Numbered from the stretch's first letter, positions 4,415 to 32,065 are shown. The stretch is DNA of 64,000 bases from Candidatus Micrarchaeota archaeon (GCA_021814005.1 JAKAJC010000004.1:230-64229), one strand, 5' to 3'. A program made the numbers and translations. The notes: a model not told the origin generated them from the sequence alone.

Positions 4415-4438
4415 AGAGATACCCCTAATTTACCGATT

Positions 4439-4705: not shown

Positions 4706-4735
4706 TTGAGAATCACCATTAGTTCATTTCATCAA

Positions 4736-5521: not shown

Positions 5522-5525
5522 CACC

Positions 5526-6308: not shown

Positions 6309-6353
6309 AGTCACCTTTTACAAAAATTATCTAATTTCATCAGAATAATTCAA

Positions 6354-9614: not shown

Positions 9615-9623
9615 TTTTATAAA
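9615..9623 (+). promoter_or_regulatory. TATA box of the nine-gene operon (leaderless first gene)
   Basis: TTTTATAAA ends 22 nt upstream of ATG 9646. There is no SD between them. Confidence 0.5.
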
Positions 9624-9645
9624 CGATATCAGTGTTGCATCGTCA

Positions 9646-12600
9646 ATGTCCCGCTCTAGGCCGCCTTCATATGCAGTATATGGCATAGCCCTCATTCTCA
9701 CCCTCTCATTCCTGCTTATTCTCATTCCGCCAGCGTCTGCCGGCGCAATCTGCTACGACTCGGCCAACACGACATATGTGCAGCTCAATTCAGACTGCAA
9801 CGCGCCGGGCCAGTTCTGCAATGTCGAGGCCTATGTCTACACCATGGTTTCGGCCCCGGGAGCCACCACTCCCAAATCGGAAGGAGTCAGCGGCGGGCTG
9901 GTAATCCTCAGCTGGGGGCAGGGCACAAGCAGGGCCTGCAAAATGGTCACCGGCTCCGACGGCAAGAACACGGCCAAACTGTCAGGCCCGAACTACCCTC
10001 CCGGCGCAACCTGCTGGAACGTGCGCGCAGTCTTCTGCCCGTTCACAAAAGACAACACAATAGAAAGCGGGCAGACCACGATGGCCGCCTGCGCCGGCCT
10101 GGTCGACGACGCCGGCAAATCCATCACTCGCATTGACTGGAATCAGGCGAGTCAGCTGCCAGACTGCGCCGCGCCTGCGCATGCGGTGAACAATTCAGCG
10201 ATGAATCAGGACCTCTCGCCATTTTTCCGCCCCTCGCAGGACTCGACAATGATATGCAACAGCGGCCCTTCTGCGGGGCAGGTGTCATTCTGCTGGGGCC
10301 TGGCCCTGGTGTTCGGGCTTCTCTTCTCGGCCTCTTTCCTCTCGGGCCGCAACCCGCTGATGTTCTTTGATTTCGGGGTGGCGCGCGGCGTGCGCATGAA
10401 CCGCGCGGCCGGCATATACACTCCAATCACCCAGAACGTGTCCATCAACCCGGTTGCCATTCTGCAGGCAATCGACAAGGCCGGCAGCATGGCTTCGACC
10501 GCGGTCGGCTCAGGCAGCAAGGACGACGAATACAACAAGAACTCGGACGGCACGGAAAAAAGCTTTGGCCAGAAGATGGATGCCGCCGGCCGGAAAGGAT
10601 TTATCACAAACGCGGTCGGCAAGACAATCAACGGCCTGTCGGACAGCTTGTTCGGCAAACTGACCGGCCAGTCGAGCGACGACTTGACCAAATCGCGGAA
10701 CGCGGCCTCGAAAGGTTTCACCTTGTCCAATGCGCTCAATTCGGTCGGGCAGAGGGCCATGGAAGGAATGGTGCTCGGCGCGCTCGGCACCCTGGCGGGC
10801 GGCAAGTTCGGCAAAATCGCGCTCGCCCACACTGGCAAGGAAGTTGCCAGCCAGATGTCGAAGGCGGCCGGTCACGGCATAGCGAGCGGGCTGGAAGCCG
10901 TCACTCCCAACGCCGACCTGGCCAAGAATGAAGGCAACAAAGGCCTTAGCGACAAAGACAGGGCCGAGCAGCTGAAAGTGCAGATTGCAGCCGCGCTTGA
11001 CAAGGATGTAAGCCTCTTCAACGTCGTGTCCGACGGCCGCGGCGGTTATTCAGTCAAGATGGGCGACGTGGTGGTCGGCGGCGTCACCCGGCCGAACGGC
11101 GCTGACGGGCCGCCGCTCTGCACATTCAACGACATCAGCTCCACGGGGCTGAGAGTGTCCAACGTGCTCCAAAATCTTGCCTTCGGCTCCAGCGCCGTGA
11201 CCTGGGTAATCCTCGATCCAGGCAAAGGTGTTGTAAAGGGGGCGGATGGCAAGTGGGCGCTTGCCGACCCCAATAACAACGGCATAACCGGGGCTTCCAA
11301 CATTTTCAACCGCGAGCAGATGATTGTTTCGGCTTCCAGCGGAGGCGTGAGAATACAGCTTCCCAACGGCCAGTGGGTGTCGATGAGCGGCAGCAGCGCC
11401 TTCTCCGACCATGTCGCCACCATACTGGATTCTATCGGGCTTTTCGTTCAGGGGCAACTCAACATCTTGGATTTGCTCAAGTCCATACTTTCGCCGGTGC
11501 TGTCCGTCGGGACGGTGGCCTCCAACGCCTTTGCCGCCCAGAACCACCCGACTGTGCAGGACGCAACCCGCATTATAGAGTTCAACAACCAGAATATTTT
11601 CATCAAGTCAAGCGGCGTCTATGAAAAAGACGAAACCACCGGCGAACTCAAGCCAATCGGCACCTATGACGTGAAAACAGAAACAATCAAATTCACCAAC
11701 GACATCCATGACCCCAAAAATCCGGCAAGCGAATCTTATCTGGAGGCCGGCGCCACCTACAAGCTCTCGCCCGACGGCACCATGACACTGGTGGACAAAG
11801 CGCATCCGCCAAAAGCACTTCCGGTTGTCATCACCACTGCCGCCAAAACCTCTGTAATCACAATAGATTCAGACAGCAACATCAAGAGCAAGGGGCTTGA
11901 CGGCGAAAAGGTCGCGCCGCCGGCCGCGCCGGCCGAAAAGGTCAATGTCGCGGTCAAACTCGCGAACGTGAACGGCGGCGGGGAGGAGAAGCTCGATTTC
12001 ACAATCACCCCGATGACATCAGACCACTCCGGCACGCGCGAGCTTGTCACCCTCTCGCACTTTGACCCGGTCGCGAAAGTCAACCTCCAGGTAATCGCCG
12101 AAGTGGACAACACCAAGAAGCCGACCGATACCGACTATATCGTGGGCGTGAAAGCCATTGTCAACCGCGCGCCTGAGACCGGCGGCCATGTTGTGGTCGG
12201 AGAGGTGCTGAGCATCGGTGACAGAAACGGCACGCCGTTGAAAGACGGCAAGTTCACATTTGACAACAACACATATGGCATCGGAAGCGCCACACTCTCA
12301 AGCGATGTCAAGATTGAACTCAAGTCCCCCGCCACTCAGACTGCGCCGGTGAAAGAGATATCAATCTCACCCACTACTCCGCCCGAAAAGATGACCGTTA
12401 TTCCGCTTGGCGCAACAGCCACGAGCGGTGATCCCGACGCCAAACTTGTGCTGGCCACCACGCTTAACACCAATACCCAGTACGTGATGGACAACACAAA
12501 CGAGGCCAATCCGAAAGTGCTGGCAGTAATCAAACGCGACGAGGACGGGCACGCGACAGCATACAAACCGAATGCCGACGGCACGGCCAGCTCGACCGAA

Positions 12601-13956
12601 ATCGACAAATTCGTTTTCCACGGCACGCAGCATGAAGTCGACATCACGACCAGGCACTATCCTCTCGGCAGCGAGCCGAGCACTGTTGTCATCTCCGACA
12701 CGCGCGTGGTGGACGGCGCAAGCGGCGACGCGTGGAAGGCGCAGCAAACCCTGCCCAGCGGCGAAAAGGTCATCTCATTCAACGGCACCACCTGCACTGT
12801 GCGCGAAACCGAAGTGGCATATGGCGCGGGTTCCAAGCCAGAAATGGTGGTATATGACGGCGGCCTGCCGGTCGGCACGGCTCAGTTCGATGACAAAGGC
12901 CATCTTCAAAGCGTGACAATAGACTACGACAATCAGGGCAGGAAGCTCTACGACCTGCCGCCCGTCGGTCCCAACCCCCCGTCAGTGCCTATTGCAGTGT
13001 TTGGCGACTATGCGCCCGGCACCGTGGTAAAGGCCAGCGGGCCGGAGGGCAAGGACCCCGAGCTCACAGAATATCTCAATTCTTCGCAAATGAACCGCCA
13101 CATGGTATTCGACGCAATCGGCGCGCAACTGGCCTCGGGCATAGACAGATTCGCCTCAGGCATGGACTACTTCGGCCTGTTCGGCAAGAAATTCTCTCCA
13201 GAAGGCGGCATGCAGTGGCTCACTGCATCGCTTTACAGCGAATATGTGAAATCTCCCATCGAAACAGCGCAACCTGGCCGGGGCTTTGACAGCATCAGGC
13301 GGGACGAGCTTAGGGAACTTTACGAAAAGTCGGGCGCAGAAGACTATGACGCCATGCGCCGTGAGGCAGAAGAGAAAAAGCAGCAGGAAGTTACGAAGTG
13401 GGTTCAGGATGTTGACAAGTTCAACAAGAGCGGCGCTGCCGGCCCTACTCCGCCCATGCCAGAGCCGCTGGAAAGAACCATGCCCTCGCGCTATGTCGAT
13501 TATCTGGTCAAACAGGTGGACGCTGGCATTGCCCCCGTCCTTTCCGCCCCGTTCACGGAAGGAATTCCCTATCGCGTTCAGGACAAAGAGGCGCGGCATG
13601 AGTCAGTTCTTTTCAAAAACCAGGCGGAGTTCGACGAGCTCAACTCAAACAATGACCCGAACAAGTATGCGATGAAAATAATCGAAAAAATAAATGCATA
13701 TGAAAACGACCTGCTCAAGCGCGTGAACAGCAGCGCGCAGAGCGGCGACCCCAACTACAAGCCGTTCACCAACTTGGGCGAGGCGCTCCTCGCTCACAGT
13801 TTCGCCACAACCGAGGACCCGAACATTGTCAAGCCCACGTGGGCCAAGAATCTTGACCCAGACCTTGTGAACGAGATGAGCAATTACATGAAAGTCTCAT
13901 CGTCTGTCAAGAAACTCGACAACCTGACGAAATACTATGAAAAGCAGGGCCAATGA
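9646..13956 (+). CDS. Operon gene 1: 1436-aa bitopic giant protein with a signal-like helix, a ~200-aa Cys-containing loop, a second TM, then a ~1190-aa Cys-poor region
   Basis: Same frame as track ORF 9535..13956. Start moved to ATG 9646 (MSRSRPPSYAVYGIALILTLSFLLILIPPASAGA). 10 of 12 Cys lie before or within the TM at ~10285-10345 (hand count). Arg residues follow the TM (positive-inside). No family recognised. Confidence 0.85.
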   Translation: MSRSRPPSYAVYGIALILTLSFLLILIPPASAGAICYDSANTTYVQLNSDCNAPGQFCNVEAYVYTMVSAPGATTPKSEGVSGGLVILSWGQGTSRACKMVTGSDGKNTAKLSGPNYPPGATCWNVRAVFCPFTKDNTIESGQTTMAACAGLVDDAGKSITRIDWNQASQLPDCAAPAHAVNNSAMNQDLSPFFRPSQDSTMICNSGPSAGQVSFCWGLALVFGLLFSASFLSGRNPLMFFDFGVARGVRMNRAAGIYTPITQNVSINPVAILQAIDKAGSMASTAVGSGSKDDEYNKNSDGTEKSFGQKMDAAGRKGFITNAVGKTINGLSDSLFGKLTGQSSDDLTKSRNAASKGFTLSNALNSVGQRAMEGMVLGALGTLAGGKFGKIALAHTGKEVASQMSKAAGHGIASGLEAVTPNADLAKNEGNKGLSDKDRAEQLKVQIAAALDKDVSLFNVVSDGRGGYSVKMGDVVVGGVTRPNGADGPPLCTFNDISSTGLRVSNVLQNLAFGSSAVTWVILDPGKGVVKGADGKWALADPNNNGITGASNIFNREQMIVSASSGGVRIQLPNGQWVSMSGSSAFSDHVATILDSIGLFVQGQLNILDLLKSILSPVLSVGTVASNAFAAQNHPTVQDATRIIEFNNQNIFIKSSGVYEKDETTGELKPIGTYDVKTETIKFTNDIHDPKNPASESYLEAGATYKLSPDGTMTLVDKAHPPKALPVVITTAAKTSVITIDSDSNIKSKGLDGEKVAPPAAPAEKVNVAVKLANVNGGGEEKLDFTITPMTSDHSGTRELVTLSHFDPVAKVNLQVIAEVDNTKKPTDTDYIVGVKAIVNRAPETGGHVVVGEVLSIGDRNGTPLKDGKFTFDNNTYGIGSATLSSDVKIELKSPATQTAPVKEISISPTTPPEKMTVIPLGATATSGDPDAKLVLATTLNTNTQYVMDNTNEANPKVLAVIKRDEDGHATAYKPNADGTASSTEIDKFVFHGTQHEVDITTRHYPLGSEPSTVVISDTRVVDGASGDAWKAQQTLPSGEKVISFNGTTCTVRETEVAYGAGSKPEMVVYDGGLPVGTAQFDDKGHLQSVTIDYDNQGRKLYDLPPVGPNPPSVPIAVFGDYAPGTVVKASGPEGKDPELTEYLNSSQMNRHMVFDAIGAQLASGIDRFASGMDYFGLFGKKFSPEGGMQWLTASLYSEYVKSPIETAQPGRGFDSIRRDELRELYEKSGAEDYDAMRREAEEKKQQEVTKWVQDVDKFNKSGAAGPTPPMPEPLERTMPSRYVDYLVKQVDAGIAPVLSAPFTEGIPYRVQDKEARHESVLFKNQAEFDELNSNNDPNKYAMKIIEKINAYENDLLKRVNSSAQSGDPNYKPFTNLGEALLAHSFATTEDPNIVKPTWAKNLDPDLVNEMSNYMKVSSSVKKLDNLTKYYEKQGQ

Positions 13957-14032
13957 TGAAGCGAACAGATGAGAAAAACAAATGATGAAGCGAACAAATG
14001 GGATTTGCAAAAATTTATTGAAGTGATTTGAA

Positions 14033-14971
14033 ATGGCAGACGAACTCGAACCGCCCGTCAACCGCCTCGGCATGAGCGCGGCGGAATTCAGCGAACTGGC
14101 GATGCGCCTGCGCGCGAAGCAGCCGCAGCTGCGCGCCATTGCCCAGCGCCTGCTGGCCGCGCGGGTCGTTATCAATTCAGTCGAGGAGCCGCTGCGCGAC
14201 GCCACAAGCAAACTGCTGGAGGCCGGGGAAATCCCGCCGGCAAAACTCAAAGACCAGTTCCTGTCCATGCGCCGCGTCAAGGAGGATGCAGAGCGCACTG
14301 CCGACTTCTACAAAGCGGCCGGCAACGCCCTCTCGTCGCTCTTTCTCTCCCCGCTGCCGCAGCAAAAGCATGCGGACGCGGCCGGCAAGAGAATGATTGA
14401 GCTTGGAGACGAATGGGAAAAATGCCGCTCAACAAATAGGCCCCGCGCCGATTACATCCGCCTGCTGCTCCGCGATTTGAGTTACACGATATTCTCCCTG
14501 CCCCTCACCCCGCCCGCCGACGGCATGGGCGCGGACCAGCGGCGCGAACTGCTGATGAGCGAAGCGATGGGGCGCGCAAAAGTCCAGACTCTTCAAACGC
14601 AAATTCCATTCGACACCGGCAACGGCATCATCTACCGCTCGCTGGAGCAGGCGCAGGCCGAAGCCGCGCAGCAAGCCGGACAAAAACTGGCGCCAATGCC
14701 GGGCCAGCCTTCGCGCCGCCCGTTGTCGGCCGTGGTCTATTCCCCTCCTCCGTCCATCGCCTCCGCTCCCCGCTCCAGAGCAAGCGGCGCCGGCATAAAG
14801 CCGGACCGCGCGGAGATGGTGCGGCAGATGGCGGTGCAATCGGCCCGCACGCGGCGCATCACTCCCGCGATAAGGCCGATTCCCCCCGCCGGAAAAACAA
14901 AATCATCCAAATCAAAATCTTCAGCGCGAAAACCAGCGGCAAAGAAAAAGAAACCAGAGCGGGGTGCCTGA
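14033..14971 (+). CDS. Operon gene 2: 312-aa soluble protein, helical N-terminal part with a Pro/Ser/Arg/Lys-rich basic tail
   Basis: No hydrophobic segment. Tail reads ...PPAGKTKSSKSKSSARKPAAKKKKPERGA. A GAAGTGA SD-like site lies 6 nt upstream of the ATG. Confidence 0.8.
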   Translation: MADELEPPVNRLGMSAAEFSELAMRLRAKQPQLRAIAQRLLAARVVINSVEEPLRDATSKLLEAGEIPPAKLKDQFLSMRRVKEDAERTADFYKAAGNALSSLFLSPLPQQKHADAAGKRMIELGDEWEKCRSTNRPRADYIRLLLRDLSYTIFSLPLTPPADGMGADQRRELLMSEAMGRAKVQTLQTQIPFDTGNGIIYRSLEQAQAEAAQQAGQKLAPMPGQPSRRPLSAVVYSPPPSIASAPRSRASGAGIKPDRAEMVRQMAVQSARTRRITPAIRPIPPAGKTKSSKSKSSARKPAAKKKKPERGA

Positions 14972-14974
14972 GCA

Positions 14975-16141
14975 ATGGTCGATTTTCTGGTGGCTGTCCC
15001 ATACGGCATAGCCATCGGCACCGGAATCGTCGCATTCGCCTACATGATAGGCTCGCTTCTGCAGTCGGACGCCATGAAATCGTGGAGCCGCCTTGAGCTT
15101 GGAGAGCTTGTGGTCTCGGCCATTCTTGTGGTGCTGGTTGCCGAGGCGCTCAGTCCGGCGGGGCAGGCCGGCATCATCAAGGCCTTCACCGGCGTGTCGA
15201 TGGGAATAGACGAGCTGCAGTCGAGGATGTATGTCTACATGGAGCTGCCGCTGGAAAAAGTGACAGAAGCCGTCGCAATAAGCAGCATGCATCTCAGCCG
15301 CATCATTTCCTACAATTACAACTACCAGCTGCCAATTCCCTACTTTTCGCCCACCGGCTCATCCAGCCCGGGCGCGGGAGCGGGGCCGCTGCAACTGTCG
15401 GTAATGATTGGCATGGATTCCACCGCTCTCAATCTCATGCTGGTCCATGCGGTCAAGCTGGTGTTTGTCTTCCTGATTTTCCTGCTGGGCACGTTCTTCA
15501 TGCCGCTCGGCATCATCCTGCGCTTCATCCCGCCTTTGCGGAAAATCGGAAGCATGCTGCTGGGCACGGGCCTGGCCGTCTATCTGGTGTTTCCCATCGC
15601 CATCTTCTGGGGCACGTCACTGCTGGCATTTTCGGTGAGCCCGCCCGATTACGACGCTGGCCGCCTGGTGCAGGACCCCGGCCGGCCTCCAACTTCCGGA
15701 TTCGTGTGCAGCACCGTCACGTCCGCCCTCTACAGCGCGGGCGAGCAGATTCCCGCATGGATAATCGGCGGAATAGTCTGCATCCCGACAATCATCACCG
15801 GCGGATACGTGGCCTGCGTCGGCACGCCCGGCTCGCCTCCGACATACGGGGGCGGAGTTGCCGGCATCGTTGCATACCTGATGTGGCTGTTCCAGTACGG
15901 CTTCCCCATCGCCACAACACAGTCGCTCAAGAGCGCGGGCGACACGCTGACGCCGGACTTCGTCTCCTCCGGCGTGTACCAGCCCATGGTGGGCTACCTT
16001 CTTCCATTGGCGGTGGTGCGAAATCTTGCGGTTCTTTTCATCGTAATCCTCGCGCTGGCGGCAACAATAATCCTGGCGCGCCAGTTCGCGCAGGTGCTGG
16101 GCGCGGAAGGGCAGTTCTACGGGCTGACAAAACTGGTGTAA
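14975..16141 (+). CDS. Operon gene 3: 388-aa polytopic membrane protein, paralog family member
   Basis: Starts 3 nt after the gene 2 stop. Carries Y-x17-E (AFAYMIGS...SRLEL), LRFIPPLRKIGSMLLGTGLAVYLVFP and the C-terminal VLGAEGQFYGLTKLV motifs. Confidence 0.85.
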   Translation: MVDFLVAVPYGIAIGTGIVAFAYMIGSLLQSDAMKSWSRLELGELVVSAILVVLVAEALSPAGQAGIIKAFTGVSMGIDELQSRMYVYMELPLEKVTEAVAISSMHLSRIISYNYNYQLPIPYFSPTGSSSPGAGAGPLQLSVMIGMDSTALNLMLVHAVKLVFVFLIFLLGTFFMPLGIILRFIPPLRKIGSMLLGTGLAVYLVFPIAIFWGTSLLAFSVSPPDYDAGRLVQDPGRPPTSGFVCSTVTSALYSAGEQIPAWIIGGIVCIPTIITGGYVACVGTPGSPPTYGGGVAGIVAYLMWLFQYGFPIATTQSLKSAGDTLTPDFVSSGVYQPMVGYLLPLAVVRNLAVLFIVILALAATIILARQFAQVLGAEGQFYGLTKLV

Positions 16142-16144
16142 TGG

Positions 16145-17197
16145 ATGGAAAACACGGCAGGAAAAATCGGTTCGGTTTCCCGTTTCGGGTTCGCCCCACT
16201 CGCAGTCCTCTCCCTGCTGTTTCTAGTCTCATCCTCTTCGGCCATCTTCGAGCCGCAGCTCTCGTGCTTCAACCAGACCTACAACATGGTGTATGATTTC
16301 GGCTCGCCAATCATCGCCGTCATTTTCATCATGGGCGTGCTCATCGCGATTGCGTACATGCTCGCGCAGCTTTTGGAAAAACCCGAGCTGTCGGTGTGGG
16401 CCAAGAGCGAAATAGTCACCCTGGGCTTTTCCATCCTTCTCATCGGCGCGGTGGTGGGCACGTTCGGACTTTCCTGCACAATCTCGAACTCGATGGTGTT
16501 TTCCGACTCGCGCGAATTCGCCAACAGCAGCGTGGTGGGGTCCGGCGCGCCGGCCAACGTTTTCACCAGCCCCGCGCAGAGGGCGGTGCAATATATCGAC
16601 AAGCTCACGCAGACCTACGGCCTGCGCCTCGCATCCGACCTCACCCGCCAGGCGGTGAACGACCAGCTCGGCGCGGTGGCATACGCGTACTGGTCCGTGC
16701 CGGTGCTTGACGGCGGCGGGCTTGCATACAAAGCCAACCAGCGCGCATGGGCGGCGCAGAAAGACATTCTCATCGACCTCTACATGCCGATGATGATTTC
16801 GCTGCAGGTGCAGAAATTCATGCTCAACCTGGCCATGGTCGGCGTGCTGAACATTCTTCTGCCGGCCGCGCTGCTTTTGCGCACGTTCTTCTTTTCGCGC
16901 GACATCGGCAACCTGCTCATCGCGCTCTCGTTTGCAATCTTCTTTGCCCTGCCGGTAGTCTATTCGTTCGGCTTCGAGGCGTCGGCAAATCTGCAGAAAC
17001 AGCTCTGTCCGTCGGGCTGCGACCCGCTCAATCCGTTCGGGCAGCTGAACATAGTCAAGGACCGCGTGGTTGGCGACAGCTATGCGAGAATCGGCTTCAT
17101 CTCCACACAAGCGATTTTAATCCCTAATCTCGCGCTGGTTGTGATGATAACCATGACCATGGCCCTAAACAAGGCCTTGAGAGGGTTCACAGGATGA
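16145..17197 (+). CDS. Operon gene 4: 350-aa polytopic membrane protein, paralog family member
   Basis: Starts 3 nt after the gene 3 stop. Carries AIAYMLAQ...WAKSEI and LRTFFFSRDIGNLLIALSFAIFFALP. The C-terminal tail motif is degenerate (KALRGFTG). Confidence 0.85.
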   Translation: MENTAGKIGSVSRFGFAPLAVLSLLFLVSSSSAIFEPQLSCFNQTYNMVYDFGSPIIAVIFIMGVLIAIAYMLAQLLEKPELSVWAKSEIVTLGFSILLIGAVVGTFGLSCTISNSMVFSDSREFANSSVVGSGAPANVFTSPAQRAVQYIDKLTQTYGLRLASDLTRQAVNDQLGAVAYAYWSVPVLDGGGLAYKANQRAWAAQKDILIDLYMPMMISLQVQKFMLNLAMVGVLNILLPAALLLRTFFFSRDIGNLLIALSFAIFFALPVVYSFGFEASANLQKQLCPSGCDPLNPFGQLNIVKDRVVGDSYARIGFISTQAILIPNLALVVMITMTMALNKALRGFTG

Positions 17198-21423: not shown

Positions 21424-21428
21424 GAAAA

Positions 21429-22718: not shown

Positions 22719-25700
22719 ATGGAGAAAAAGAACCGGCCGCATTCACCGAAGTTCTCATCGCCATCGCCCATGCCGCACCTTGCGCTGTTATTTCTCTTGG
22801 CCGCAGTTCTGCTCGCTCCATTTGTTTCGGCAGACATAACCGCAACAATTGATTACAACAGCGCCCCTCCCCCGCCCGCCTCGCCCTGGCTCACCATAAC
22901 TCCGATGACTGTGGGCGTGAGCGCCGACTGCGGCACCATACCGCCCTGCGTGCCGCCGTTCAGAATCAATTTCCAGTTCGTCTGCGGCGGCACCCCTGTG
23001 CAGGAAACATTCACAAACGTCCCGCCGGCCTCCCGAACAGCATACACCTATTATCCAAACTCCGACCCCGCATGCCGCGAGCCGACGCCGCTGAATTCCA
23101 TAATCACAATCACCGACACTACTGGACAATCATTTTTCACGCAAAGTTTCCCCGTAGCTCTGGCAAATGGTACAGACACCACTCCGCCGGGCATCTCGTG
23201 GAATCCCGTGCCGCCGCCAGAATATGATGCGGGCGCAACCATCAGCTTCGGCTTCACAGTCACCGACCCTGACGACAACACCAACGCGATTCCGACATTG
23301 TATCCAAATGTCGCCACGGCCGAGGTGGAAATCACCGACTTGGGAAACGGCCAGGTCTATGGGCCATATGACATGGGCCCGTTCCCTCCACCGAACGGCT
23401 GGAGCACCCAAGTCTTTCATATAGAAGGCACCCCCAGCGCCGACCACACTGTTGAAATCAACTGCAGCCGCCTCAACTGCGTCGGAGATTTGCAAATAAA
23501 AGTCAGGTCCCACGACCCTGCGGGCCTTGGCATTACCCTGCCGCCAATGATTGTGCGCAGGCGCGGCGGCCTGGTTCTTCCCTCTCCCATATTGGGCATC
23601 ATCCCGCCCGCACCCGTCTGCCCCAACGCGGCCATCCGCGCCATGGCAAACCAGCCGTCTGGCTCCCCTGCAATAGACAGCCATGAATACAGCTGGTCCA
23701 TCACTCCAAATCCTCCGGTGCAGATAGATACTGTGCCCGACACCGCCAAAACGGGCGCCACTTCAGACACATTCGACTGCGCGGCGCGCAACTGCCAGAA
23801 CGGCCAGACCGTGTCAGTAAGCGTGCTCGCCATCGCCGGCGCCCAGCGCTCCCCTCCCAACGCCACCCTGATTCTCGTCGACGGCAGCAGCCTTGACTGC
23901 AGAATGCCGGCAGCCCCGCTTCTCACCAACCAGACAATATCCATCTCGCCCTTCAACGCGATAGTGCTGGCAAACCAGAGCAACAACGATCCGCGAGCCG
24001 TGCTCCACCGCTATGTCTGGACCATGGCCGACGGCACAGTCATCGAATCCCCGCTCATGCCCCTGCCAATCCAAAATGTCACATCAGCTCCCGTGCCCTG
24101 CGCCGCGAATCCAAACCTCTACTGCCCGTCGGGAGGAACCGTCCTTCTCACGGTCTATTCATACACTGCGCAGAATGTGCAATCCCAGCCAGCATTTATC
24201 TCCATCTTAATTCCGGCGCGCTCAGCCCTCAATCCGCCGGTGGTTGTCACCAAGCCCTTCAGCCCGTATGACAACGACACCATCGTGCTTGTTGCAAACA
24301 ACCAGAACGAAGAGGTGGACCGGCACCAGTACCGCCTGCTCATCATCAATGCGGACGGCACTATATACCAAGAAATCGATGCTCCAATCTACGACACTGT
24401 TTCCACAACCGCGGCAGACAAACACACCACCACATCCAAGCCATTCACCTGCACGACAAGCGTATGCAGGGGCCGCTTTGCCAACATAACCGCCCGCGCC
24501 TACAATTCCCTTGGCTGGTCAGACTGGTCTCCCTGGCTGAGCGTCCCATTCGGCCCGCCGCCGATTCCTGCGCCAATACTTGTGCGCATCGACCCGATTC
24601 CACCCGGCAATTCGATGCTGTCAGACATCAATTCCGGACTTGGCGCGCTCCTCAACACCTCGCTTGCCTACAGCTTCACAATAACCCCGCCCGCCGGCCA
24701 GCCGCCGTTCAACGACTATATTCCAACCCTCACAGTCAACGGCGCAGACGCGCCGGTTTCATCCAGCCGCTCGGGCAACAATCTCATCATCACTCTGGCC
24801 TGCACCCCGTCATCATGTCCGAACGGCTCAATCCTCACATACAAGGTAATCGGCGTGCAGGCGGGAGCGAATTCCACTCCCCTGTATTTCTCGCTTGTAG
24901 TTCCGCAGGCGAGCGGCATGCCCGCGCAGGTGGGCGTCATCTGTTCCGGCGCCGAACTGCAAAGATGGCTGCAGGTGATGGCCATCGGCATGATGGCCCT
25001 TCTCGCCCTTATCGCGCTCGTCTATATGATTGGCGAGGCGCTGCACCACCCGCAGCTTTTGGAATGGTCCAAATCAGAAATCGGGCACGTGGGCATGACC
25101 ATCATCCTCTTCTTCCTCATCGTATGGCTGATTCAGTTCCAGTGCAACCTGACGGTGGGCGAATTCCTCAACTGGTCTGGCTCGTCAAACCCCCTCTACT
25201 CGTCAGGCATGACGCTTTCACAGGCAGGTCTCAAATCGCTTGAATGGGGCATCACCCAGACGCGGCTCACCCTCGTGGCCATGCGCTACGAGATGGGAGT
25301 GCTCAACATGCGGGCCACCTATTCCTCCTACTCCACCCAGTTCCCCGGAATGGGCGGCAACGGCTACAGCTTCATGCCCTTCTCGGGCGATTACACCCTG
25401 CTCGGCTCGTTCGGCATGCTCACCAACCTCAACTCCACTTTCCTGCTCGCGCTCCTCTTCCAGCTATTCTCGCTGTTCTTCTTTTCCTCTTCCAGCGGGC
25501 TGTTCATATTCCTCGTGCCGGTCGGCCTCATACTGCGCTCGGTTCCGTTCATACGCGGATTCGGCGGCTCGCTGGTGGCCATCGGCATCGGCTTCTACAT
25601 ATTCTATCCGATTCTGCTTGCCTTCACCGGCCTTCTGCTCGCGCCGCTCTACTCGGGCATTGACTCCACCAGCCAGCTCGGCATCGCCGACGCCTCGCAG

Positions 25701-25991
25701 CTGGAGGCAAAAGAGCTTGCGATTCACACGCCATTCAGCAGCACCGGCCTTGCTGGCGACAACATTTTCAGCTACAATCCGGGCGACCCGTATCCGGGGC
25801 CGCTGATGCCCACCGCCGGCAAGGACTCGCCGCCGAAGCTGGGAATATATTTCAATCTAACTGCCCTGAATTTCCTGCGCGCCATCCTCATTCCGACCGC
25901 AGGGCTGATAGTGACCGTGTCATTTGTGCGCGACCTCGCGGCCATTTTCGGCGAAGAGGTGGACGCGTCGAAACTGATTGCCATGATTTAG
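22719..25991 (+). CDS. Operon gene 7: 1090-aa protein with a signal peptide, a ~720-aa repeat-containing ectodomain, then the paralog membrane module
   Basis: The ATG abuts the gene 6 stop (TAAATG). There are five C-x4-7-C pairs at aa 249/254, 354/359, 461/469, 578/583 and 695/700. The module begins ALVYMIGE...WSKSEI, then LRSVPFIRGFGGSLVAIGIGFYIFYP, with C-terminal IFGEEVDASKLIAMI. Confidence 0.88.
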   Translation: MEKKNRPHSPKFSSPSPMPHLALLFLLAAVLLAPFVSADITATIDYNSAPPPPASPWLTITPMTVGVSADCGTIPPCVPPFRINFQFVCGGTPVQETFTNVPPASRTAYTYYPNSDPACREPTPLNSIITITDTTGQSFFTQSFPVALANGTDTTPPGISWNPVPPPEYDAGATISFGFTVTDPDDNTNAIPTLYPNVATAEVEITDLGNGQVYGPYDMGPFPPPNGWSTQVFHIEGTPSADHTVEINCSRLNCVGDLQIKVRSHDPAGLGITLPPMIVRRRGGLVLPSPILGIIPPAPVCPNAAIRAMANQPSGSPAIDSHEYSWSITPNPPVQIDTVPDTAKTGATSDTFDCAARNCQNGQTVSVSVLAIAGAQRSPPNATLILVDGSSLDCRMPAAPLLTNQTISISPFNAIVLANQSNNDPRAVLHRYVWTMADGTVIESPLMPLPIQNVTSAPVPCAANPNLYCPSGGTVLLTVYSYTAQNVQSQPAFISILIPARSALNPPVVVTKPFSPYDNDTIVLVANNQNEEVDRHQYRLLIINADGTIYQEIDAPIYDTVSTTAADKHTTTSKPFTCTTSVCRGRFANITARAYNSLGWSDWSPWLSVPFGPPPIPAPILVRIDPIPPGNSMLSDINSGLGALLNTSLAYSFTITPPAGQPPFNDYIPTLTVNGADAPVSSSRSGNNLIITLACTPSSCPNGSILTYKVIGVQAGANSTPLYFSLVVPQASGMPAQVGVICSGAELQRWLQVMAIGMMALLALIALVYMIGEALHHPQLLEWSKSEIGHVGMTIILFFLIVWLIQFQCNLTVGEFLNWSGSSNPLYSSGMTLSQAGLKSLEWGITQTRLTLVAMRYEMGVLNMRATYSSYSTQFPGMGGNGYSFMPFSGDYTLLGSFGMLTNLNSTFLLALLFQLFSLFFFSSSSGLFIFLVPVGLILRSVPFIRGFGGSLVAIGIGFYIFYPILLAFTGLLLAPLYSGIDSTSQLGIADASQLEAKELAIHTPFSSTGLAGDNIFSYNPGDPYPGPLMPTAGKDSPPKLGIYFNLTALNFLRAILIPTAGLIVTVSFVRDLAAIFGEEVDASKLIAMI

Positions 25992-26004
25992 GAGAGAACC
26001 TGCC

Positions 26005-27198
26005 ATGACAAAACAAAAAATAAAATCAAAAACAAATTCGGCCCCCATGTCGGGATTGCTTTCGGCCAGCCGCGCACGTTTCACCCTCTCCTCCTTCTTC
26101 CTCACATTCTTCTTCATCCTCTTCCTCTCGTCAATTCTCGCGGCTCTCGACCCCAACGCCCTCACATGGAGCAATCCCGACAAGCTCATGGTCCGCTCGG
26201 CCGGCTACTTCCAGCCAACCTCGCCCAACAGCTGGTACCGCATGGTCATTCCCGCTCTGGCCATCTGCATTTTTGCCAACACTCTTGTCTATGTGTTCGG
26301 GCGCGTTGCGAACGCGCCGCACGTGGTCCAGTTCGCGAAATCAGAATTCTACCAGGTCACGGCCTCGGCAGTCATGATATTCATTTTGGTGGCCGCGGGC
26401 GCGGAATCATTCCGCTATATTCAGGACAGCGGCCTGCTGCCCGCAGGCACCACGACTTTGTGCTACGGACAGGCGATGTCAGTTTGGGATGTGGGGCCGT
26501 TCGGCATAATCCGCTGCAAGCTGCAGGAGAAAATCGACTATGTTGAAGACCTCTACAATCAGGCATGGACTCTCAACGCCAATGTCGAGCCTCTCACCAC
26601 CTATTCGCTCTACCTCTTCAACATACCCGTCTATGTGTGGGACTGGAACACCGCCCTGCATTCGCAGATGGAGCAGGCCCACTTCATAGCCAACAAGCTC
26701 ACGCCAATCGGCATCAGCCTTCACGCGCAATTCATGTTTGCAGAATATCTTGCCCAGAACATGCTCAACGTATTTTTGCCGGTCGGCCTGCTGCTGCGCA
26801 TCTTCCCCATCCTGCGCGGCATCGGCTCTCTCATGGTGGCCATCTCAATCGGCTTCTTCTTCGTGTTCCCCATCGCATACATTTTGATGGACCCGACAAC
26901 CGTGCGGCCCGACCCTGCCACCCTCATACCGGCGGTCAATGACAACAAGGCCAACGTGTGCTACACTTCGTTCAGCGGCATGGTGACCACCTACACCCAA
27001 ATCGCCCCGAAGGTGGCGCAAAAGGCGGAGACGGCCGACATCACCCAAATAGGCTCGGAACTTGCCAAACTGCAGATAGAGGCGTTCTTCTATCCGCTTG
27101 CCGCGCTTGCCACCGCGCTGGTGTTCATCTCCATCGCCACGCCAATCTTGGGCGGCGACTCGGGGGAAATCATGCACTTCCTCACAAAGGTGATATGA
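26005..27198 (+). CDS. Operon gene 8: 397-aa polytopic membrane protein, paralog family member
   Basis: A GGAGAG SD-like site lies in the 13-nt gap after gene 7. Carries TLVYVFGR...FAKSEF, LRIFPILRGIGSLMVAISIGFFFVFP and the C-terminal ILGGDSGEIMHFLTKVI. Confidence 0.85.
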   Translation: MTKQKIKSKTNSAPMSGLLSASRARFTLSSFFLTFFFILFLSSILAALDPNALTWSNPDKLMVRSAGYFQPTSPNSWYRMVIPALAICIFANTLVYVFGRVANAPHVVQFAKSEFYQVTASAVMIFILVAAGAESFRYIQDSGLLPAGTTTLCYGQAMSVWDVGPFGIIRCKLQEKIDYVEDLYNQAWTLNANVEPLTTYSLYLFNIPVYVWDWNTALHSQMEQAHFIANKLTPIGISLHAQFMFAEYLAQNMLNVFLPVGLLLRIFPILRGIGSLMVAISIGFFFVFPIAYILMDPTTVRPDPATLIPAVNDNKANVCYTSFSGMVTTYTQIAPKVAQKAETADITQIGSELAKLQIEAFFYPLAALATALVFISIATPILGGDSGEIMHFLTKVI

Positions 27199-27199
27199 G

Positions 27200-30100
27200 T
27201 TGGGAAAAGAAAAAGAAATTGAGAGCATGCGCGCACAGGCGCCGCACCCGTCGCGGGAATCGGACAGTGGAACAAATATCAATCTGTTGTTTTTGGCCGC
27301 CATCTCCCTCTCCCTTCTCTCCCTCATTTTCCTCTCGGGCTGCGTGCAGCCCAACTCCAACCTCTCCTACGGCGCGTGCTGCATGCAGAGCAATTCGTTC
27401 TATACCTGCCAGGTGCGCACCGACGCCAACGGCACGCAGCAGCGGGATTCGAACGGCAACCTTCTCATCGACGGCTGCGGCCCCTGCATTGCCGTTGCCA
27501 AGAACGGCACGGTTTACAACTCGTCCGGCCCAACCGACGCCGCGCTCTGCACAAACAACTGCAACTTCAAGCAGTCCAACTGCACCAATTTCGACGGCAA
27601 AAACACCTGCTATCTTGTGGACAAGAACATGCAGACAACCAACGAATCGGTGGGCCCGATTTGCATGGCCGCAACCGACCCGTGCGTGCAGAACAACTGC
27701 ACTGCCATGGTTTACGGCAAGCCGCTTCCATCCCCCAAGCGCAGCATCAACTCCCAGTCGGTGCAGCAGTCCAACAACCCGGACGGCAACGCGTTCAAGC
27801 AGGACGCGGCCAACCAGAAGACCGGCCTTGTGGGCCGCATCATGCAGTTCAGCCAGTTCAACACCCGCCTTGCCCGCCTCTTGAAAAGTCCGGACTGGTC
27901 TGTGAACACTTTGCGCCTCGGCCTCCAAGGACAATTTTCCGACTACGACCGCGCGCGTTTCTATCTTCCGCCCTCGGATTACTTCTGCCCGCAAAACAAC
28001 CCCAACGCAATAGTTGACCGCTACACCGCCTATCTGGACGGGTTGAGCGCGCTCCCGCCTTTCCGCTCATACTACACTGTCAATTACGCAACAACCTGCA
28101 GCCCCGGCCACAAAAAACCCCCGTATGGCGGCTGGTATTCAACATGCACCTGCACTCCCTCCAGCCCTCCCGCCCCGCCGTGCGGCAAGGATTTCATGGG
28201 TTCTTCTGCCCTTGATGCAGAAGACATGTGCAACTCCTCCTGCACGAATTTCAGCCGTGTATACAGCACGCCCAATTTCAAGAATCCGCTCAGCCTCTGC
28301 CGCCTCGAGCCGGCATCAGGCGCCAATCTCTCCTACTTCTACTGCGATGTCAATCCCGGGCTCAAGTTCACCATCGCCGACCCGTCCGACCAGCTGCGCG
28401 CATATCTTTCCTGCCAGAAAGCATGCAGTTACAGCCAATACCGCACATGCAGCCAGAATCAGGACCTTCTGACCTACAACGCCAATCTCCACCCCAATAT
28501 TTATTCGCCCTCCAATTGGCCTCCACAAACACCTCCGGCCGGCTCAATCCAGCCGTTCATCGACATCGACCAATATGCCAAGGCGCTTGCGAACGCTTAT
28601 CCGACTCCGACCGGGCCGGCCTGGTGCCCCGCGCTTGTGGCGCTAAGACCCGACCCTGCCAAGGAGGCGGCGATGAAGAATGACCCGCGCAATTACTACA
28701 AATGCCTTCTGCCCGAACCCAACAGTGCCGGCGCCAACCAGACCATAGCCGCCTACGGCATCACGGCCGACCAGTACAACACCACCTATATGAGCGAGGG
28801 CATCAAGCCCGGGCCTGCCGGCGGCAAGGTGTTTGAGTGCACCGGCGGCGGCGACTGCCTCTCCGGCATCTGCGACAAATCCACCTATTCGCGCACCTCA
28901 TGCTTCCTCAAAGACGGCTCTGCGGTTGACTGCGCCTGCCGCTGGGTAACCAATTGCAAGCTCGCGTACCAATGCTCGGGTTACGAAGCCCGCAGCATCA
29001 GAAAAGACCAGTGCGAGGTGAACCTCAACAACTGCCAGGAGGCACAGGGAGGCTCGGACTATCCGGTGCTGATGTGCGAGTACCGCATCAATCCGCTCAC
29101 TCCCCAGACCGCCAATCCGCCCATCCATGGCCTGCGCACCCCCTACGCCTCCAGTGGCAACTATGTTTTCAACGACGGCCGCAACGGCTACGGCATTCTG
29201 CATATCGAGGAATTCAACAAATACATCGACGCTGCGGTCGCGGACGCCGAGCTTGCCACGGTGCAAAGGCCCTCCACTTCGCTCGAATTGTGCCCAAGCC
29301 GCGTGCGCCGGCCATGCGCCTCTTCAACAGAACAGGGCTGCTATGTGAGGAACACCAATCCTCCCGACGTGTCGGTGCTCTGGCAGCATGACGGCGACAG
29401 CGACGTATACCAGAACATACCGGCCTACACGCCCACCTACGACGCCTGCCCAAGCGGCGGCACGCTGTCCAATGTCTCTGGCTGGAAAGACACTCCCAAG
29501 GCATTTGGCGACTATTTGCGCGACAGTTCCTACCCCTCGCGCGAAACATTTGCTCTCGTGCCCACGCAGCAGGCGGTGGCCGGGCCGGGAGGCGCGCATT
29601 TCATCACCACCAGCCGCTATGTGACATGGCAGAATGACAACTGCTATTTCTCGCTCTCCGGCTACACTCTGAGCGGCTCAAAATGTCCGGCAGACCAGGT
29701 CCGCTTCCCGCTCTTTCAGGCCTGCAACATGAGCGTTAATTCCGAATATTTCAACAAAGCCGCAGGCAGCAGGAGCTATCCTTATCAGGACGCGTATCAG
29801 GCCGAAATATACAATGCCCGCGGGCAGGATGCGGCCGGCTCCGCGTTTGATGTGAAATATGTGGACGGCTATTCCTACGACCCAAACAACAACGACACCC
29901 TTTATTCCTACGGCGGCTCTGACCCCTACCGCATAGACAAGACGTGGGCAATCTACAGTTTCGGCGCCTGCCAGGTCCAGCCAAGCACCCCATCCGCTCC
30001 GGCGGTGTCGGGCAAGAGCCCGCCGCCGGTGGTGTTCAGCTACGGCATGTGCCGCTCGTGCGGCACCCTGCTGTCCATGGCTTACCAGCCGGTGAAGGAT

Positions 30101-31864
30101 TCGCCTCTGGCCTTCCCATACGACTTCAACGGCTACTGCCCCTCGGGCTGCAAAAAGTATATTTGGAACGGCTTTCTGAATATGGGGCCGAAATTCTCGT
30201 GGTGCGCCGAGTGCCCGTCCAGCTATCCTGCGCAGACTTTCAGCCAATTCGCAAGAGGCTCGCCGGCAATGTATCCTGATTTCGGATTTCTGGCCGACAA
30301 AATCAACGAATACCAGTCATCCAACATCCTGCCAGTTCTGGATGTGCGCAACTACCACTATGCCGACGGGGGCAGCACTGTTGTGAGAGTGCCGTTCTCA
30401 AATCTCTGCCAGACGCTCGGCGGCAAGAGGGGCGGCTCCGGCGCAATCAACCAAAACGGCGGCGTGTATCAGGGTTCTGCCTGGGACTGCACCCTTCCCG
30501 CACAGCCCGACTGGCTGCTTGCATATCTGAACAAGAACCACTCGGCCGCGGTTCTTATCGTGGCCAACCTGCCCCCCGCCGCAATCGACCCGGCTGTCGT
30601 GCAGGCGGAGGTGGACCGCTCTGCGAAGGCCTGCCCCAACTGCCTGCGGGCGCTCGAATACGTCCCGCTTCTCACGCCTTCCGACGTGACGGGGGCAGAC
30701 TACAATTATCCTTCAGCCCTCAACGACTCGGTGGCTTCATACACGAACGTGTCATTCAATCCCCTGCGCGTCAGCACGCCTCCCGAATGGCTGTCCAACC
30801 GCGGCAAGAAGCCCGACAACGTGCGGCAGGTGGACATGATAGTGCTTGAGCTTGACATGTCCGGCGTGGACATGACCAACGAGACGACCGTGGACAACGC
30901 AGTCCTCGCTTATGTCAACCTCTCGCGCCGCCTGCTGCAGCACGTGGGCTGGCCGACAATTTGGAAAATCAATTACAGATTCGGCATGTACCCCTCCGCG
31001 CTCACCAACGACGTCCTCTACCGCCGCATCATAGCGCACGAGCGCGAGATGACGCTGGCAGGGGTGAGCGGCGTGCTTATGCCGGCCATGGACAACGGCG
31101 ACCCGGACGGGCACATCACCGGCCCGCCCACCGAGCAGTTCGGCCGCCTTCTTCCCAACACCGGCGGCTTGAGCGGCTCGAGCCTTATCCGCGCATCCGG
31201 CACGCCTTTCTGCGCCCTGCAAAATGCCTCGGCCGAATTCCTGCATCCCAAGATGATGGTCGGCACCCAGAAAATTCTGGCCAAGAACAACTGCTCCTGC
31301 CTGCCGTGCAGCGACATGGACCTTCTGGCCGGCAACTGCAACAACAAGTGCTATGACGGGCTGGCCTGCGAGGCTCCCGGCGGCGGCACAAGCGCCGGCA
31401 GCAAGTGCGAGCCATACTGCGTGCGCAACAGCTTCTGCCAAAACAACCTGTGCAACGGCACCCAGATTGGAAGCAAGACAACAACCTGCACCGCCCTGCG
31501 CCCCACCAACCTGCCGCCTGTCTCCTGCGGCGCCAACAACGCCCTCTTCCCCAAGTGCGACGTGCTGGCCGATGCCGCGCTCAAAGACATAGCCGCATTG
31601 CCGCAGGCGCCGCAGCTTATCGGCGGATTGCCGCCGGGGCAGGGCTGCTGCCTGTCGCAGAATCGCACCTATTACACCTACCGCTCTGCCGGTTCTGCCG
31701 CCACTTCAGCAGAGCCGGTCATTTTCCCCGGCTACGGCGCCAACACCACAGACTGCGGGCGCGTGCCGGACCCGGGCGACCCCTATTCCGACCCGTCCGC
31801 AAACTGCGCCGTGCCGCCTGCTCCGCTAAGCAATGTGATGTGGACCTGCACCCCGCCGAGATGA
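27200..31864 (+). CDS. Operon gene 9: 1554-aa Cys-rich secreted protein with a lipobox-like signal (LIFLSGC), lacking the paralog membrane module
   Basis: TTG 27200 lies 1 nt after the gene 8 stop, with AGGTGA 6 nt upstream; ATG 27227 is the alternative start. About 75 Cys by hand count. There is no C-terminal TM and no family recognised. Confidence 0.85.
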   Translation: MGKEKEIESMRAQAPHPSRESDSGTNINLLFLAAISLSLLSLIFLSGCVQPNSNLSYGACCMQSNSFYTCQVRTDANGTQQRDSNGNLLIDGCGPCIAVAKNGTVYNSSGPTDAALCTNNCNFKQSNCTNFDGKNTCYLVDKNMQTTNESVGPICMAATDPCVQNNCTAMVYGKPLPSPKRSINSQSVQQSNNPDGNAFKQDAANQKTGLVGRIMQFSQFNTRLARLLKSPDWSVNTLRLGLQGQFSDYDRARFYLPPSDYFCPQNNPNAIVDRYTAYLDGLSALPPFRSYYTVNYATTCSPGHKKPPYGGWYSTCTCTPSSPPAPPCGKDFMGSSALDAEDMCNSSCTNFSRVYSTPNFKNPLSLCRLEPASGANLSYFYCDVNPGLKFTIADPSDQLRAYLSCQKACSYSQYRTCSQNQDLLTYNANLHPNIYSPSNWPPQTPPAGSIQPFIDIDQYAKALANAYPTPTGPAWCPALVALRPDPAKEAAMKNDPRNYYKCLLPEPNSAGANQTIAAYGITADQYNTTYMSEGIKPGPAGGKVFECTGGGDCLSGICDKSTYSRTSCFLKDGSAVDCACRWVTNCKLAYQCSGYEARSIRKDQCEVNLNNCQEAQGGSDYPVLMCEYRINPLTPQTANPPIHGLRTPYASSGNYVFNDGRNGYGILHIEEFNKYIDAAVADAELATVQRPSTSLELCPSRVRRPCASSTEQGCYVRNTNPPDVSVLWQHDGDSDVYQNIPAYTPTYDACPSGGTLSNVSGWKDTPKAFGDYLRDSSYPSRETFALVPTQQAVAGPGGAHFITTSRYVTWQNDNCYFSLSGYTLSGSKCPADQVRFPLFQACNMSVNSEYFNKAAGSRSYPYQDAYQAEIYNARGQDAAGSAFDVKYVDGYSYDPNNNDTLYSYGGSDPYRIDKTWAIYSFGACQVQPSTPSAPAVSGKSPPPVVFSYGMCRSCGTLLSMAYQPVKDSPLAFPYDFNGYCPSGCKKYIWNGFLNMGPKFSWCAECPSSYPAQTFSQFARGSPAMYPDFGFLADKINEYQSSNILPVLDVRNYHYADGGSTVVRVPFSNLCQTLGGKRGGSGAINQNGGVYQGSAWDCTLPAQPDWLLAYLNKNHSAAVLIVANLPPAAIDPAVVQAEVDRSAKACPNCLRALEYVPLLTPSDVTGADYNYPSALNDSVASYTNVSFNPLRVSTPPEWLSNRGKKPDNVRQVDMIVLELDMSGVDMTNETTVDNAVLAYVNLSRRLLQHVGWPTIWKINYRFGMYPSALTNDVLYRRIIAHEREMTLAGVSGVLMPAMDNGDPDGHITGPPTEQFGRLLPNTGGLSGSSLIRASGTPFCALQNASAEFLHPKMMVGTQKILAKNNCSCLPCSDMDLLAGNCNNKCYDGLACEAPGGGTSAGSKCEPYCVRNSFCQNNLCNGTQIGSKTTTCTALRPTNLPPVSCGANNALFPKCDVLADAALKDIAALPQAPQLIGGLPPGQGCCLSQNRTYYTYRSAGSAATSAEPVIFPGYGANTTDCGRVPDPGDPYSDPSANCAVPPAPLSNVMWTCTPPR

Positions 31865-32058: not shown

Positions 32059-32065
32059 CATTTTT

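Follow-up and report, generated by a model that had tools for sequence, protein, structure and literature searches.

A conserved gene cluster of Micrarchaeota with six tandem paralogous membrane proteins and giant ectodomains, probably encoding a new cell-envelope machine

Introduction

The mycobacterial Mce systems (Mce1A-F, with YrbE permeases and the MceG ATPase) include six paralogues in fixed tandem order within one operon, which together form a single hetero-hexameric structure that spans the envelope and has long helical extensions. To our knowledge, no other well-known system has six tandem paralogues that form one ring. Polytopic membrane proteins are also found in type IV secretion systems (T4SS), whose VirB6/TrbL components occur at times as tandem paralogous arrays with very large extra domains; the rvhB6 proteins of Rickettsiales, tandem VirB6 paralogues with large extensions, are an example. 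Among archaeal envelope proteins, the large glycosylated S-layer proteins (PF05123 type; SlaA/SlaB of Sulfolobales) and the giant, fast-evolving CARDB-repeat surface proteins of DPANN archaea have to be considered. Micrarchaeota, like other DPANN archaea, have genomes of ~1 Mb, are unable to produce many of their own building blocks and live attached to archaeal hosts; few candidate genes for DPANN attachment and uptake are available. Here, we describe a cluster of nine genes (g1-g9) located in a 64,000-nt stretch of a Candidatus Micrarchaeota archaeon genome (GCA_021814005.1, JAKAJC010000004.1:230-64229; called the window throughout, with positions counted from its first letter). Six of the genes (g3-g8, the hexad) encode paralogous polytopic membrane proteins, and others encode giant envelope proteins. 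The cluster is probably a new cell-envelope machine and not a T4SS, Mce system, S-layer or pilus, and it provides a concrete candidate with defined subunits for attachment and uptake.

Organization of the cluster

The nine genes are co-directional and tightly packed over 22.2 kb, which, set against a Micrarchaeota genome of ~1 Mb, corresponds to ~2% of the genome. A previous sequence-only reading of the window had proposed these nine open reading frames (ORFs) and their spacing; ORF calling returned the same coordinates and lengths, and the same junctions follow from the ORF coordinates. The features are as follows:

9616..9624 (+): TATA-like box TTTTATAAA, leaderless-type promoter, read from sequence
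9646..13956 (+): g1, 1436 aa, bitopic giant, defined by its ORF and its transmembrane and Cys profile
14033..14971 (+): g2, 312 aa, soluble, with a Lys/Ser-rich basic tail
14975..16141 (+): g3, 388 aa, hexad subunit 1, with five to six transmembrane segments and no large ectodomain or signal peptide
16145..17197 (+): g4, 350 aa, hexad subunit 2
17194..21423 (+): g5, 1409 aa, hexad subunit 3, with an ectodomain inserted between transmembrane segments 4 and 5
18139..21213 (+): ectodomain of g5, residues 316-1340, ~1025 aa, Cys-rich
21429..22718 (+): g6, 429 aa, hexad subunit 4
22719..25991 (+): g7, 1090 aa, hexad subunit 5, with an N-terminal ectodomain ahead of the module
26005..27198 (+): g8, 397 aa, hexad subunit 6, the best-conserved subunit
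27200..31864 (+): g9, 1554 aa, Cys-rich lipoprotein-type giant
27332..27343 (+): lipobox L-S-G-C of g9, residues 45-48 (...LIFLSGC48)
30239..31099 (+): predicted (beta/alpha)8 TIM-barrel domain of g9, residues ~1014-1300, similar to glycoside hydrolase clan A

From g1 to g9, the junctions measure 76, 3 and 3 nt, followed by a 4-nt ATGA overlap and then by 5, 0, 13 and 1 nt. The GC content by codon position is coding-like and uniform over all nine genes, g2 included. For g9, two starts come into question: TTG 27200, with a good Shine-Dalgarno (SD) motif, and ATG 27227, the one picked by other gene callers (P0182, 1545 aa).

The box TTTTATAAA is located at -30 to -22 relative to ATG 9646, i.e., 21 nt before the ATG. 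No other TATA-like octamer occurs in the 60 nt ahead of the nine starts, in line with the proposal that only the first gene has a TATA box. No SD motif was found ahead of g1. Ahead of g3-g9, a GGTG/GAGG/GGAG motif lies 10-16 nt from each start, and TATA-like octamers are absent. The earlier statement that an SD motif precedes every internal start therefore holds for g3-g9 but not for g2, where there is only a weak GAAGTGAT, plus an A/T-rich stretch at -24; because of these two features, a secondary promoter for g2-g9 is possible. Taken at face value, the signals make one transcript for the whole cluster likely.

Six paralogues of one membrane module

The proteins g3-g8 are anciently diverged copies of one new module with five transmembrane (TM) segments. 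Pairwise BLASTP comparisons gave E values of 1e-4 to 2e-9, and MAFFT alignment revealed common motifs: A(L/I)VYM in TM1, (S/T)E(F/I/L) before TM2, LLP(L/V)G(I/L)LLR....R..G over TM3, the following loop and TM4, and a C-terminal LG(G/A)(D/E) tail after TM5. The claim of six paralogous polytopic membrane proteins is thus well founded. The topology of the module was derived from hydropathy, the positive-inside rule (alignments A1 and A6) and the secondary structure in an AlphaFold2 (AF2) model of g8. In the N-terminal half, a signal peptide or N-out start is followed by TM1 (out-to-in), TM2 (in-to-out) and an extracellular domain of ~100 aa, composed of two long helices and small beta hairpins and containing two invariant Cys. 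In the C-terminal half, TM3 and TM4 are joined by a short Arg-rich loop in the cytoplasm and TM4 and TM5 by a loop on the outside, and the tail after TM5 is cytoplasmic. The g8 protein accordingly has a signal peptide and five TM segments; its extracellular helical hairpin includes a small beta element, and its C-terminal LGGD is cytoplasmic. The residues that are near-invariant in 63 diverse members (in g8 numbering E114, L258, P259, G261, L264, R265, R271, G274, P289 and G383) are located mostly at the cytoplasmic membrane face; for E114, P259, G261, R265, R271 and G274, and for the C-terminal LGGD, this holds throughout. Large insertions occur in extracellular positions only, between TM4 and TM5 in g5 and between the signal peptide and TM1 in g7; in g5, the module is therefore split into two matched stretches (residues ~60-315 and 1341-1409). 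The comparison of the AF2 model of the module with solved structures gave no matching fold.

The family is large. When 1.84 billion cluster representatives were searched with the module profile A2, 2928 matched at E<=1e-3 and 2108 at E<=1e-10, the size of the metagenome family being counted in clusters at 50% identity. The matches include long forms, in which the module is located at either end or is split in two. A second homologue search with the same paralogue profile found 24 proteins. There are thus thousands of metagenome relatives, yet no described family or fold.

Conservation of the cluster

A scan of a genome collection with the g8 alignment A1 recovered 34 loci, all from Micrarchaeota; as the scan was built on g8-specific patterns, its reach does not extend to the range of the family beyond Micrarchaeota. 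The named homologues and the 34 genome loci come from metagenome-assembled genomes of Micrarchaeota, Micrarchaeia or Anstonellaceae, and further loci, metagenome ones among them, were obtained by look-ups of single homologues. The order g3-g4-g5-g6-g7-g8-g9 is constant among the recovered loci, with that of the hexad retained in 40 Micrarchaeota loci. Each subunit also keeps its identity: in 17 loci with complete hexads (two of them duplicates of one contig), the best match of the paralogue at a given position was the paralogue at the same position in 1446 of 1632 comparisons (88.6%, vs 16.7% expected by chance). It follows that the six paralogues diverged before the lineages split and that each has been retained since. 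An obligate hetero-oligomer of six different subunits would lead one to expect such retention.

The position of g1 differs between lineages. In the clade of the window it is ahead of the hexad, with g3 directly after g1 in the related locus L040, and in a distant clade it follows g9, a circular permutation in which the gene set still remains together. Dozens of Micrarchaeota contigs carry orthologues of eight of the nine genes in unchanged order, which puts the clustering far beyond chance. Judged by gene order, the conserved unit is g1, the hexad and g9, i.e., eight genes; nine genes had been proposed as one unit, a proposal refined here in that g2 is lineage-specific. The strong neighbourhood conservation that the sequence-only reading would predict is thus found in related genomes (34 genome loci and the metagenome loci).

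In one Micrarchaeota lineage, two loci, L003 (5661-9624) and L004 (313-2711), have a ~6-kb insertion between the g7-like gene and g8, which carries a HepT/MNT toxin-antitoxin pair and genes for AAA_14/DUF4143 ATPases. The hexad therefore tolerates division into two transcription units.

The surroundings of the cluster are those of a chromosome. Upstream, on the minus strand, lies an exosome/proteasome superoperon (L37ae, Rrp42, Rrp41, Rrp4, SBDS, a lipoprotein-like ORF and PsmA); downstream are tRNA-His(GTG) at 31947-32059 (+) and the genes for NMD3 and DUF2070. Both flanks had been recognized before, and both are confirmed here. Housekeeping genes flank the cluster in all clades, and searches of plasmid and viral collections found no relatives, which agrees with the earlier view of a chromosomal rather than mobile locus. 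A chromosomal, vertically inherited envelope complex is the best explanation of these data.

Ectodomains of g5, g6 and g7

The sequence-only reading mentioned two huge Cys-containing ectodomains. This describes g5 well, with 85 Cys in the whole protein, 78 of them within the ectodomain, and 15 N-glycosylation sequons. The second, g7, has a ~690-aa ectodomain (residues 45-735, followed by the membrane module at 736-1090) and is only moderately Cys-rich, with 18 Cys in the whole protein. The g5 ectodomain contains ten CPxxC[R/K] motifs, and every long g5 orthologue has 6-12 of them, vs 0.6 expected from shuffling. At two sites of g5 (C467-C477 and C1310-C1320), the Cys are spaced as CxxCxxCxxxC, which is typical of 4Fe-4S ferredoxins. 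An iron-sulfur (Fe-S) cluster is considered unlikely here, since it would have to sit in a predicted extracellular loop of a polytopic protein, and Sec-type insertion and the requirements of Fe-S export speak against it.

The sizes of the subunits vary widely among orthologues (g5, 328-1761 aa; g6, 328-933 aa; g7, 317-1115 aa). The ectodomain evolves faster than the module: between g7 and its orthologue in locus L005, the former is 34% and the latter 71% identical. For g4, identity to the closest relative (also in L005) is 76%. The ectodomains of the window itself matched no Pfam domain, and Pfam detected CARDB repeats in five of the 25 orthologues that bear an ectodomain (best E 2.6e-63), among them some g6 orthologues with N-terminal repeats and g7 orthologues.

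The g1 and g2 proteins

The g1 protein consists of a signal peptide (residues 1-33), a Cys-containing ectodomain (34-212), a TM segment (213-231), an Arg-rich juxtamembrane segment and a tail of ~1100-1200 aa. Its 12 Cys are clustered N-terminally, and the tail is Cys-poor, Lys/Asp/Glu-rich and hardly conserved. Conservation among 17 orthologues is confined to residues ~30-350, with the consensus LCWPLMLI..GASFA.GRNPF.AFDFS.PRM.RGRQY, of which GRNPF.AFDFS.PRM.RGRQY belongs to the Arg-rich segment; with the orthologue in L040, g1 shares 31% identity over residues 85-691. Pfam found CARDB in one of the 17 orthologues and no match in the g1 of the window or in most others. The description of g1 as a bitopic giant holds for the single TM segment and the Cys-poor giant part. 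However, the positive-inside rule, applied to the conserved segment after the TM, places the tail most likely in the cytoplasm and not at the surface.

The g2 protein has no TM segment and one Cys. It was called as a gene on five public contigs, whereas tblastn gave no match to it in 40 loci, and it is absent between g1 and g3 in L040; by these comparisons, g2 is lineage-specific. A conserved ORF of ~88 aa after g1 in the distant clade was considered as an equivalent and rejected, as it has no similarity to g2 and its sequences resemble a translated conserved non-coding or RNA region.

Two further observations concern the region behind g1. In loci of the Anstonellaceae type, a near-identical ORF of ~89 codons (L024 19725-19994, L026 19722-19991, L031 20136-20360) stands ~180-200 nt 3' of g1; since its translation is Arg/Ser/Pro-rich, a conserved non-coding or RNA element is suggested. 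In the window, the 16-nt sequence AATGATGAAGCGAACA is directly repeated in the spacer between g1 and g2, at 13952-13967 and again, with a period of 29 nt, at 13981-13996 (+). The stop codon of g1 is overlapped by the first copy, the second stands shortly before the lineage-specific g2, and the repeat looks like a small tandem duplication of the 3' end of g1.

The g9 protein

The g9 protein is extracellular and contains 75 Cys and 25 sequons. Its signal peptide ends in a lipobox, so that lipidation is predicted, and in 22 orthologues G47 and C48 of the lipobox are invariant, together with 17 further Cys (19 invariant Cys in all). The earlier description of a lipobox-type Cys-rich giant is thereby upheld. 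No match to g9 was obtained in Pfam (22 sequences) or in sequence searches of the Protein Data Bank (PDB).

The absence of any enzyme signature, which had been stated for all nine products, is borne out at the level of sequence; the predicted structure of g9, however, includes a (beta/alpha)8 TIM barrel with a fold like that of glycoside hydrolase (GH) clan A (GH5/10/26/53). The likeness is in fold only. Identity is 5-15%, no Pfam or CAZy GH family is matched by sequence, and the barrel sits within a disulfide-rich lipoprotein of 1554 aa. Clan A is defined by a pair of Glu residues, the acid/base after strand 4 and the nucleophile after strand 7. In g9 no such invariant pair was found among the 22 orthologues, with the residues not being placed on strands in three dimensions; the best-conserved acidic positions of the barrel are D1048 (21/22), D1212 (acidic in 18/22), E1217 (acidic in 16/22) and E1153 (acidic in 15/22).

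Comparison with known systems

That the nine proteins belong to no recognizable family had been claimed, and it agrees with all searches made. Scans with Pfam, NCBIfam and PHROGs gave nothing that reached threshold; sub-threshold matches, among others to DUF4971, thymidylate synthase and a phage minor tail protein, were rejected as noise. When the orthologues were scanned with Pfam (22 g9, 17 g1, 63 modules and 25 ectodomain-bearing subunits), CARDB alone recurred. Sequence-profile searches of the PDB with alignments A1, A3 and A6 found nothing, and literature searches found no earlier description of the cluster. Among all these comparisons, of profiles and of structures, there was no confident match to VirB6/TrbL, S-layer or pilus systems.

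The likeness to Mce lies in gene organization only, namely six paralogues in fixed tandem order. Mce subunits are single-pass, whereas g3-g8 are polytopic with five TM segments, and there is no detectable homology; Pfam found no MCE domain (PF02470) in the paralogues, and neither the cluster nor its flanks contain a YrbE/MlaE permease or an MceG/MlaF ATPase. With VirB6/TrbL the hexad shares the polytopic, tandem paralogous arrangement with very large extra domains. However, TrbL/VirB6 (PF04610) was matched in Pfam and NCBIfam neither by the six paralogues of the window (E<=1) nor by the 63 members (E<=0.01), no similarity of the module to solved inner-membrane components of T4SS was found, and Pfam and NCBIfam detected no VirB4/VirD4-type ATPase or pilin domain in the nine proteins. 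The mobile-element context of T4SS is also missing, given the housekeeping flanks and the lack of plasmid or viral relatives. As for the Ced/Ted systems, neither a CedB-type ATPase nor a small pilin gene was found in the cluster. Components of type IV pili and archaella (pilins with class III signal peptides, PilB/FlaI, PilC/FlaJ) were not detected by Pfam or NCBIfam in the nine proteins.

Like the archaeal S-layer proteins, the cluster encodes large glycosylated envelope proteins, and both occur in the same organisms. The cluster proteins, however, lack PF05123 or any other S-layer domain, and they include multi-pass subunits. The S-layer protein described for Micrarchaeota is of PF05123 type and sulfur-poor (bioRxiv 10.1101/2021.04.28.441871); being nearly without sulfur amino acids, it contrasts with the 85 Cys of g5 and the 75 Cys of g9. 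With the giant surface proteins of DPANN archaea, the cluster has in common CARDB repeats in some g6, g7 and g1 orthologues, large size and fast evolution, but here the adhesin-like parts are joined to, or encoded with, a six-paralogue core and not a single anchor. On the basis of these comparisons, the cluster is classed as new.

Proposed function and alternative explanations

It is proposed that g3-g8 would assemble in a 1:1:1:1:1:1 ratio into a hetero-hexameric ring in the cytoplasmic membrane, with the long extracellular helical hairpins of the hexad forming a stalk or barrel. The ectodomains of g5, g7 and g6, together with g9 and the g1 head, might then build a large surface cap, which would bind, and perhaps trim, glycans on the partner surface. 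The g1 tail could couple the complex to the cytoplasm, in the lineage of the window together with g2. Such an assembly may serve contact with a host or surface and possibly the passage of material across the symbiont membrane, and, having no dedicated ATPase, it would operate passively or be driven by the proton-motive force. If the six paralogues do form one ring, they would be a rare case of a membrane complex that is obligately hetero-hexameric, and their membrane-protein fold would be new.

The best single reading of the cluster is a host- or surface-contact apparatus, possibly also a conduit, and its probability can be put at roughly 0.45. Contact is favoured because Micrarchaeota are host-dependent, their genomes are small and the cluster takes up ~2% of the genome. 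A more specific version, in which the ring, the adhesin-like or glycan-binding giants and the g1 tether make up a host-interface machine for docking and for the uptake of lipids or metabolites, must be regarded as tentative. If true, the prokaryotic trans-envelope apparatuses would gain a new class that lacks an ATPase and is not homologous to secretion, pilus or Mce systems.

Several points weigh against a contact apparatus. The hexamer is inferred from six conserved paralogues and translational coupling alone, and the tie of the genes to a structure or to host contact comes from sequence only. In ARM-1, cryo-electron tomography attributed the nanotubes between cells to the host and not to the symbiont (PMC11329633); on the same ground, the cluster was rejected as the source of the nanotubes in ARM-1 co-cultures. 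The predicted g9 structure is poor outside the barrel (mean pLDDT, the model confidence score, 59), and catalysis by g9 is doubtful because the barrel has no invariant Glu pair. Finally, the loci L035, L036 and L038 contain six small subunits only (~300-580 aa) and are devoid of g9, g1 and large ectodomains. The core function can therefore do without the surface parts and might be an ordinary function of the membrane. The existence of such loci makes the hexad the core and the giants accessories, although the contigs are short (12-19 kb) and g1 and g9 could be elsewhere in the genome. The loci L034 and L037 retain a g1-like gene. A large conserved protein encoded upstream of the minimal hexads was considered as a partner and rejected, since it is leucyl-tRNA synthetase (LeuRS).

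Among the alternatives, a scaffold of the S-layer and pseudoperiplasm is unlikely but has a concrete basis. In this explanation, the hexad would anchor the six-fold axes of a hexagonal S-layer, and the S-layer would be kept 20-25 nm above the membrane by the giant ectodomains and g9, acting as stalks or spacers, a structural role unrelated to the host. Micrarchaeota do have an S-layer and a pseudoperiplasm of 20-25 nm, with the anchoring of the S-layer protein still unexplained (bioRxiv 10.1101/2021.04.28.441871). A p6 lattice would accommodate six subunits, and the cluster belongs to the conserved chromosomal core. PF05123, however, is matched by none of the nine proteins; the three- to five-fold variation in size and the fast evolution would not be expected of structural spacers, and some loci have small paralogues only. 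These minimal loci are, in turn, the main argument for a housekeeping channel, transporter or flippase, since their hexads lie among genes for LeuRS, the tRNA-modification enzymes Trm5 and aTrm56, the transcription factor TFE, the mevalonate pathway and PGK. The ring would then be a conduit for solutes, ions, lipids or a glycan carrier, and the ectodomains would be lineage-specific extras with secondary roles. In each of the six paralogues, the conserved charged residues E114, R265 and R271 are grouped on the cytoplasmic side of the membrane, and, as far as we know, DPANN genomes encode few recognized transporters. We nevertheless hold this explanation to be quite unlikely, as there is no similarity to transporter families or folds, the cluster comes with neither an ATPase nor a substrate-binding protein, and more than 15 kb of ectodomains, g9 and g1 are tightly coupled to the hexad in most lineages.

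The TIM barrel of g9 brings envelope biogenesis or glycan processing into consideration, with the hexad exporting or assembling surface glycoproteins or exopolysaccharides and the barrel trimming or transferring glycans of the cell's own surface. This is improbable: besides the catalytic Glu pair, which is not conserved in g9, no homologue of a glycosyltransferase, flippase or oligosaccharyltransferase is present in or adjoining the cluster, and the minimal loci lack g9. A T4SS- or Ced-like translocon for DNA or protein, with the paralogues as channel subunits like VirB6/TrbL/CedA, is the least likely of the alternatives. It can draw on the analogy of tandem polytopic paralogues with large extensions, as in the rvhB6 arrays, and on a HerA-type ATPase gene 7 kb downstream (38962-40503), but all the features tested for membership in T4SS are missing.

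Neighbouring genes and minor observations

The tRNA-His gene downstream of the cluster carries a 39-nt intron and was detected with aragorn -i; because of the intron, it is missed by default ARAGORN and by an Rfam scan at gathering thresholds. It has its own TTTATAT box at -37 and a T-run after the gene, and its position -1 is T, vs the usually encoded G. Farther downstream, beyond tRNA-Phe and 5-7 kb from the cluster, are two ATPase genes: an AAA+ ATPase at 36650-37921 (+), LonB-lid/sigma54/Mg-chelatase-like by weak matches, and the HerA-type ATPase at 38962-40503 (+), with DUF87 and a HAS barrel. In the relatives whose flanks were read, no genes of such sizes are present downstream of g9.

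On the other side of the cluster, the lipoprotein-like ORF between SBDS and PsmA (7966-8739, -) encodes 257 aa with a lipoprotein-type N-terminus (…IFIGC) and has no Pfam match. A giant ORF at 50-4177 (-) encodes 1375 aa with four Cys and two hydrophobic segments near residues 930-1000; neither a Pfam match nor similarity to the nine cluster proteins or to the proteins of the loci compared was found for it. Two plus-strand ORFs, of 352 aa (5355-6413) and 396 aa (4346-5536), are antisense to the Rrp41 and Rrp42 genes. Both are almost certainly spurious; at a G+C content of 56-59%, long shadow ORFs occur commonly.

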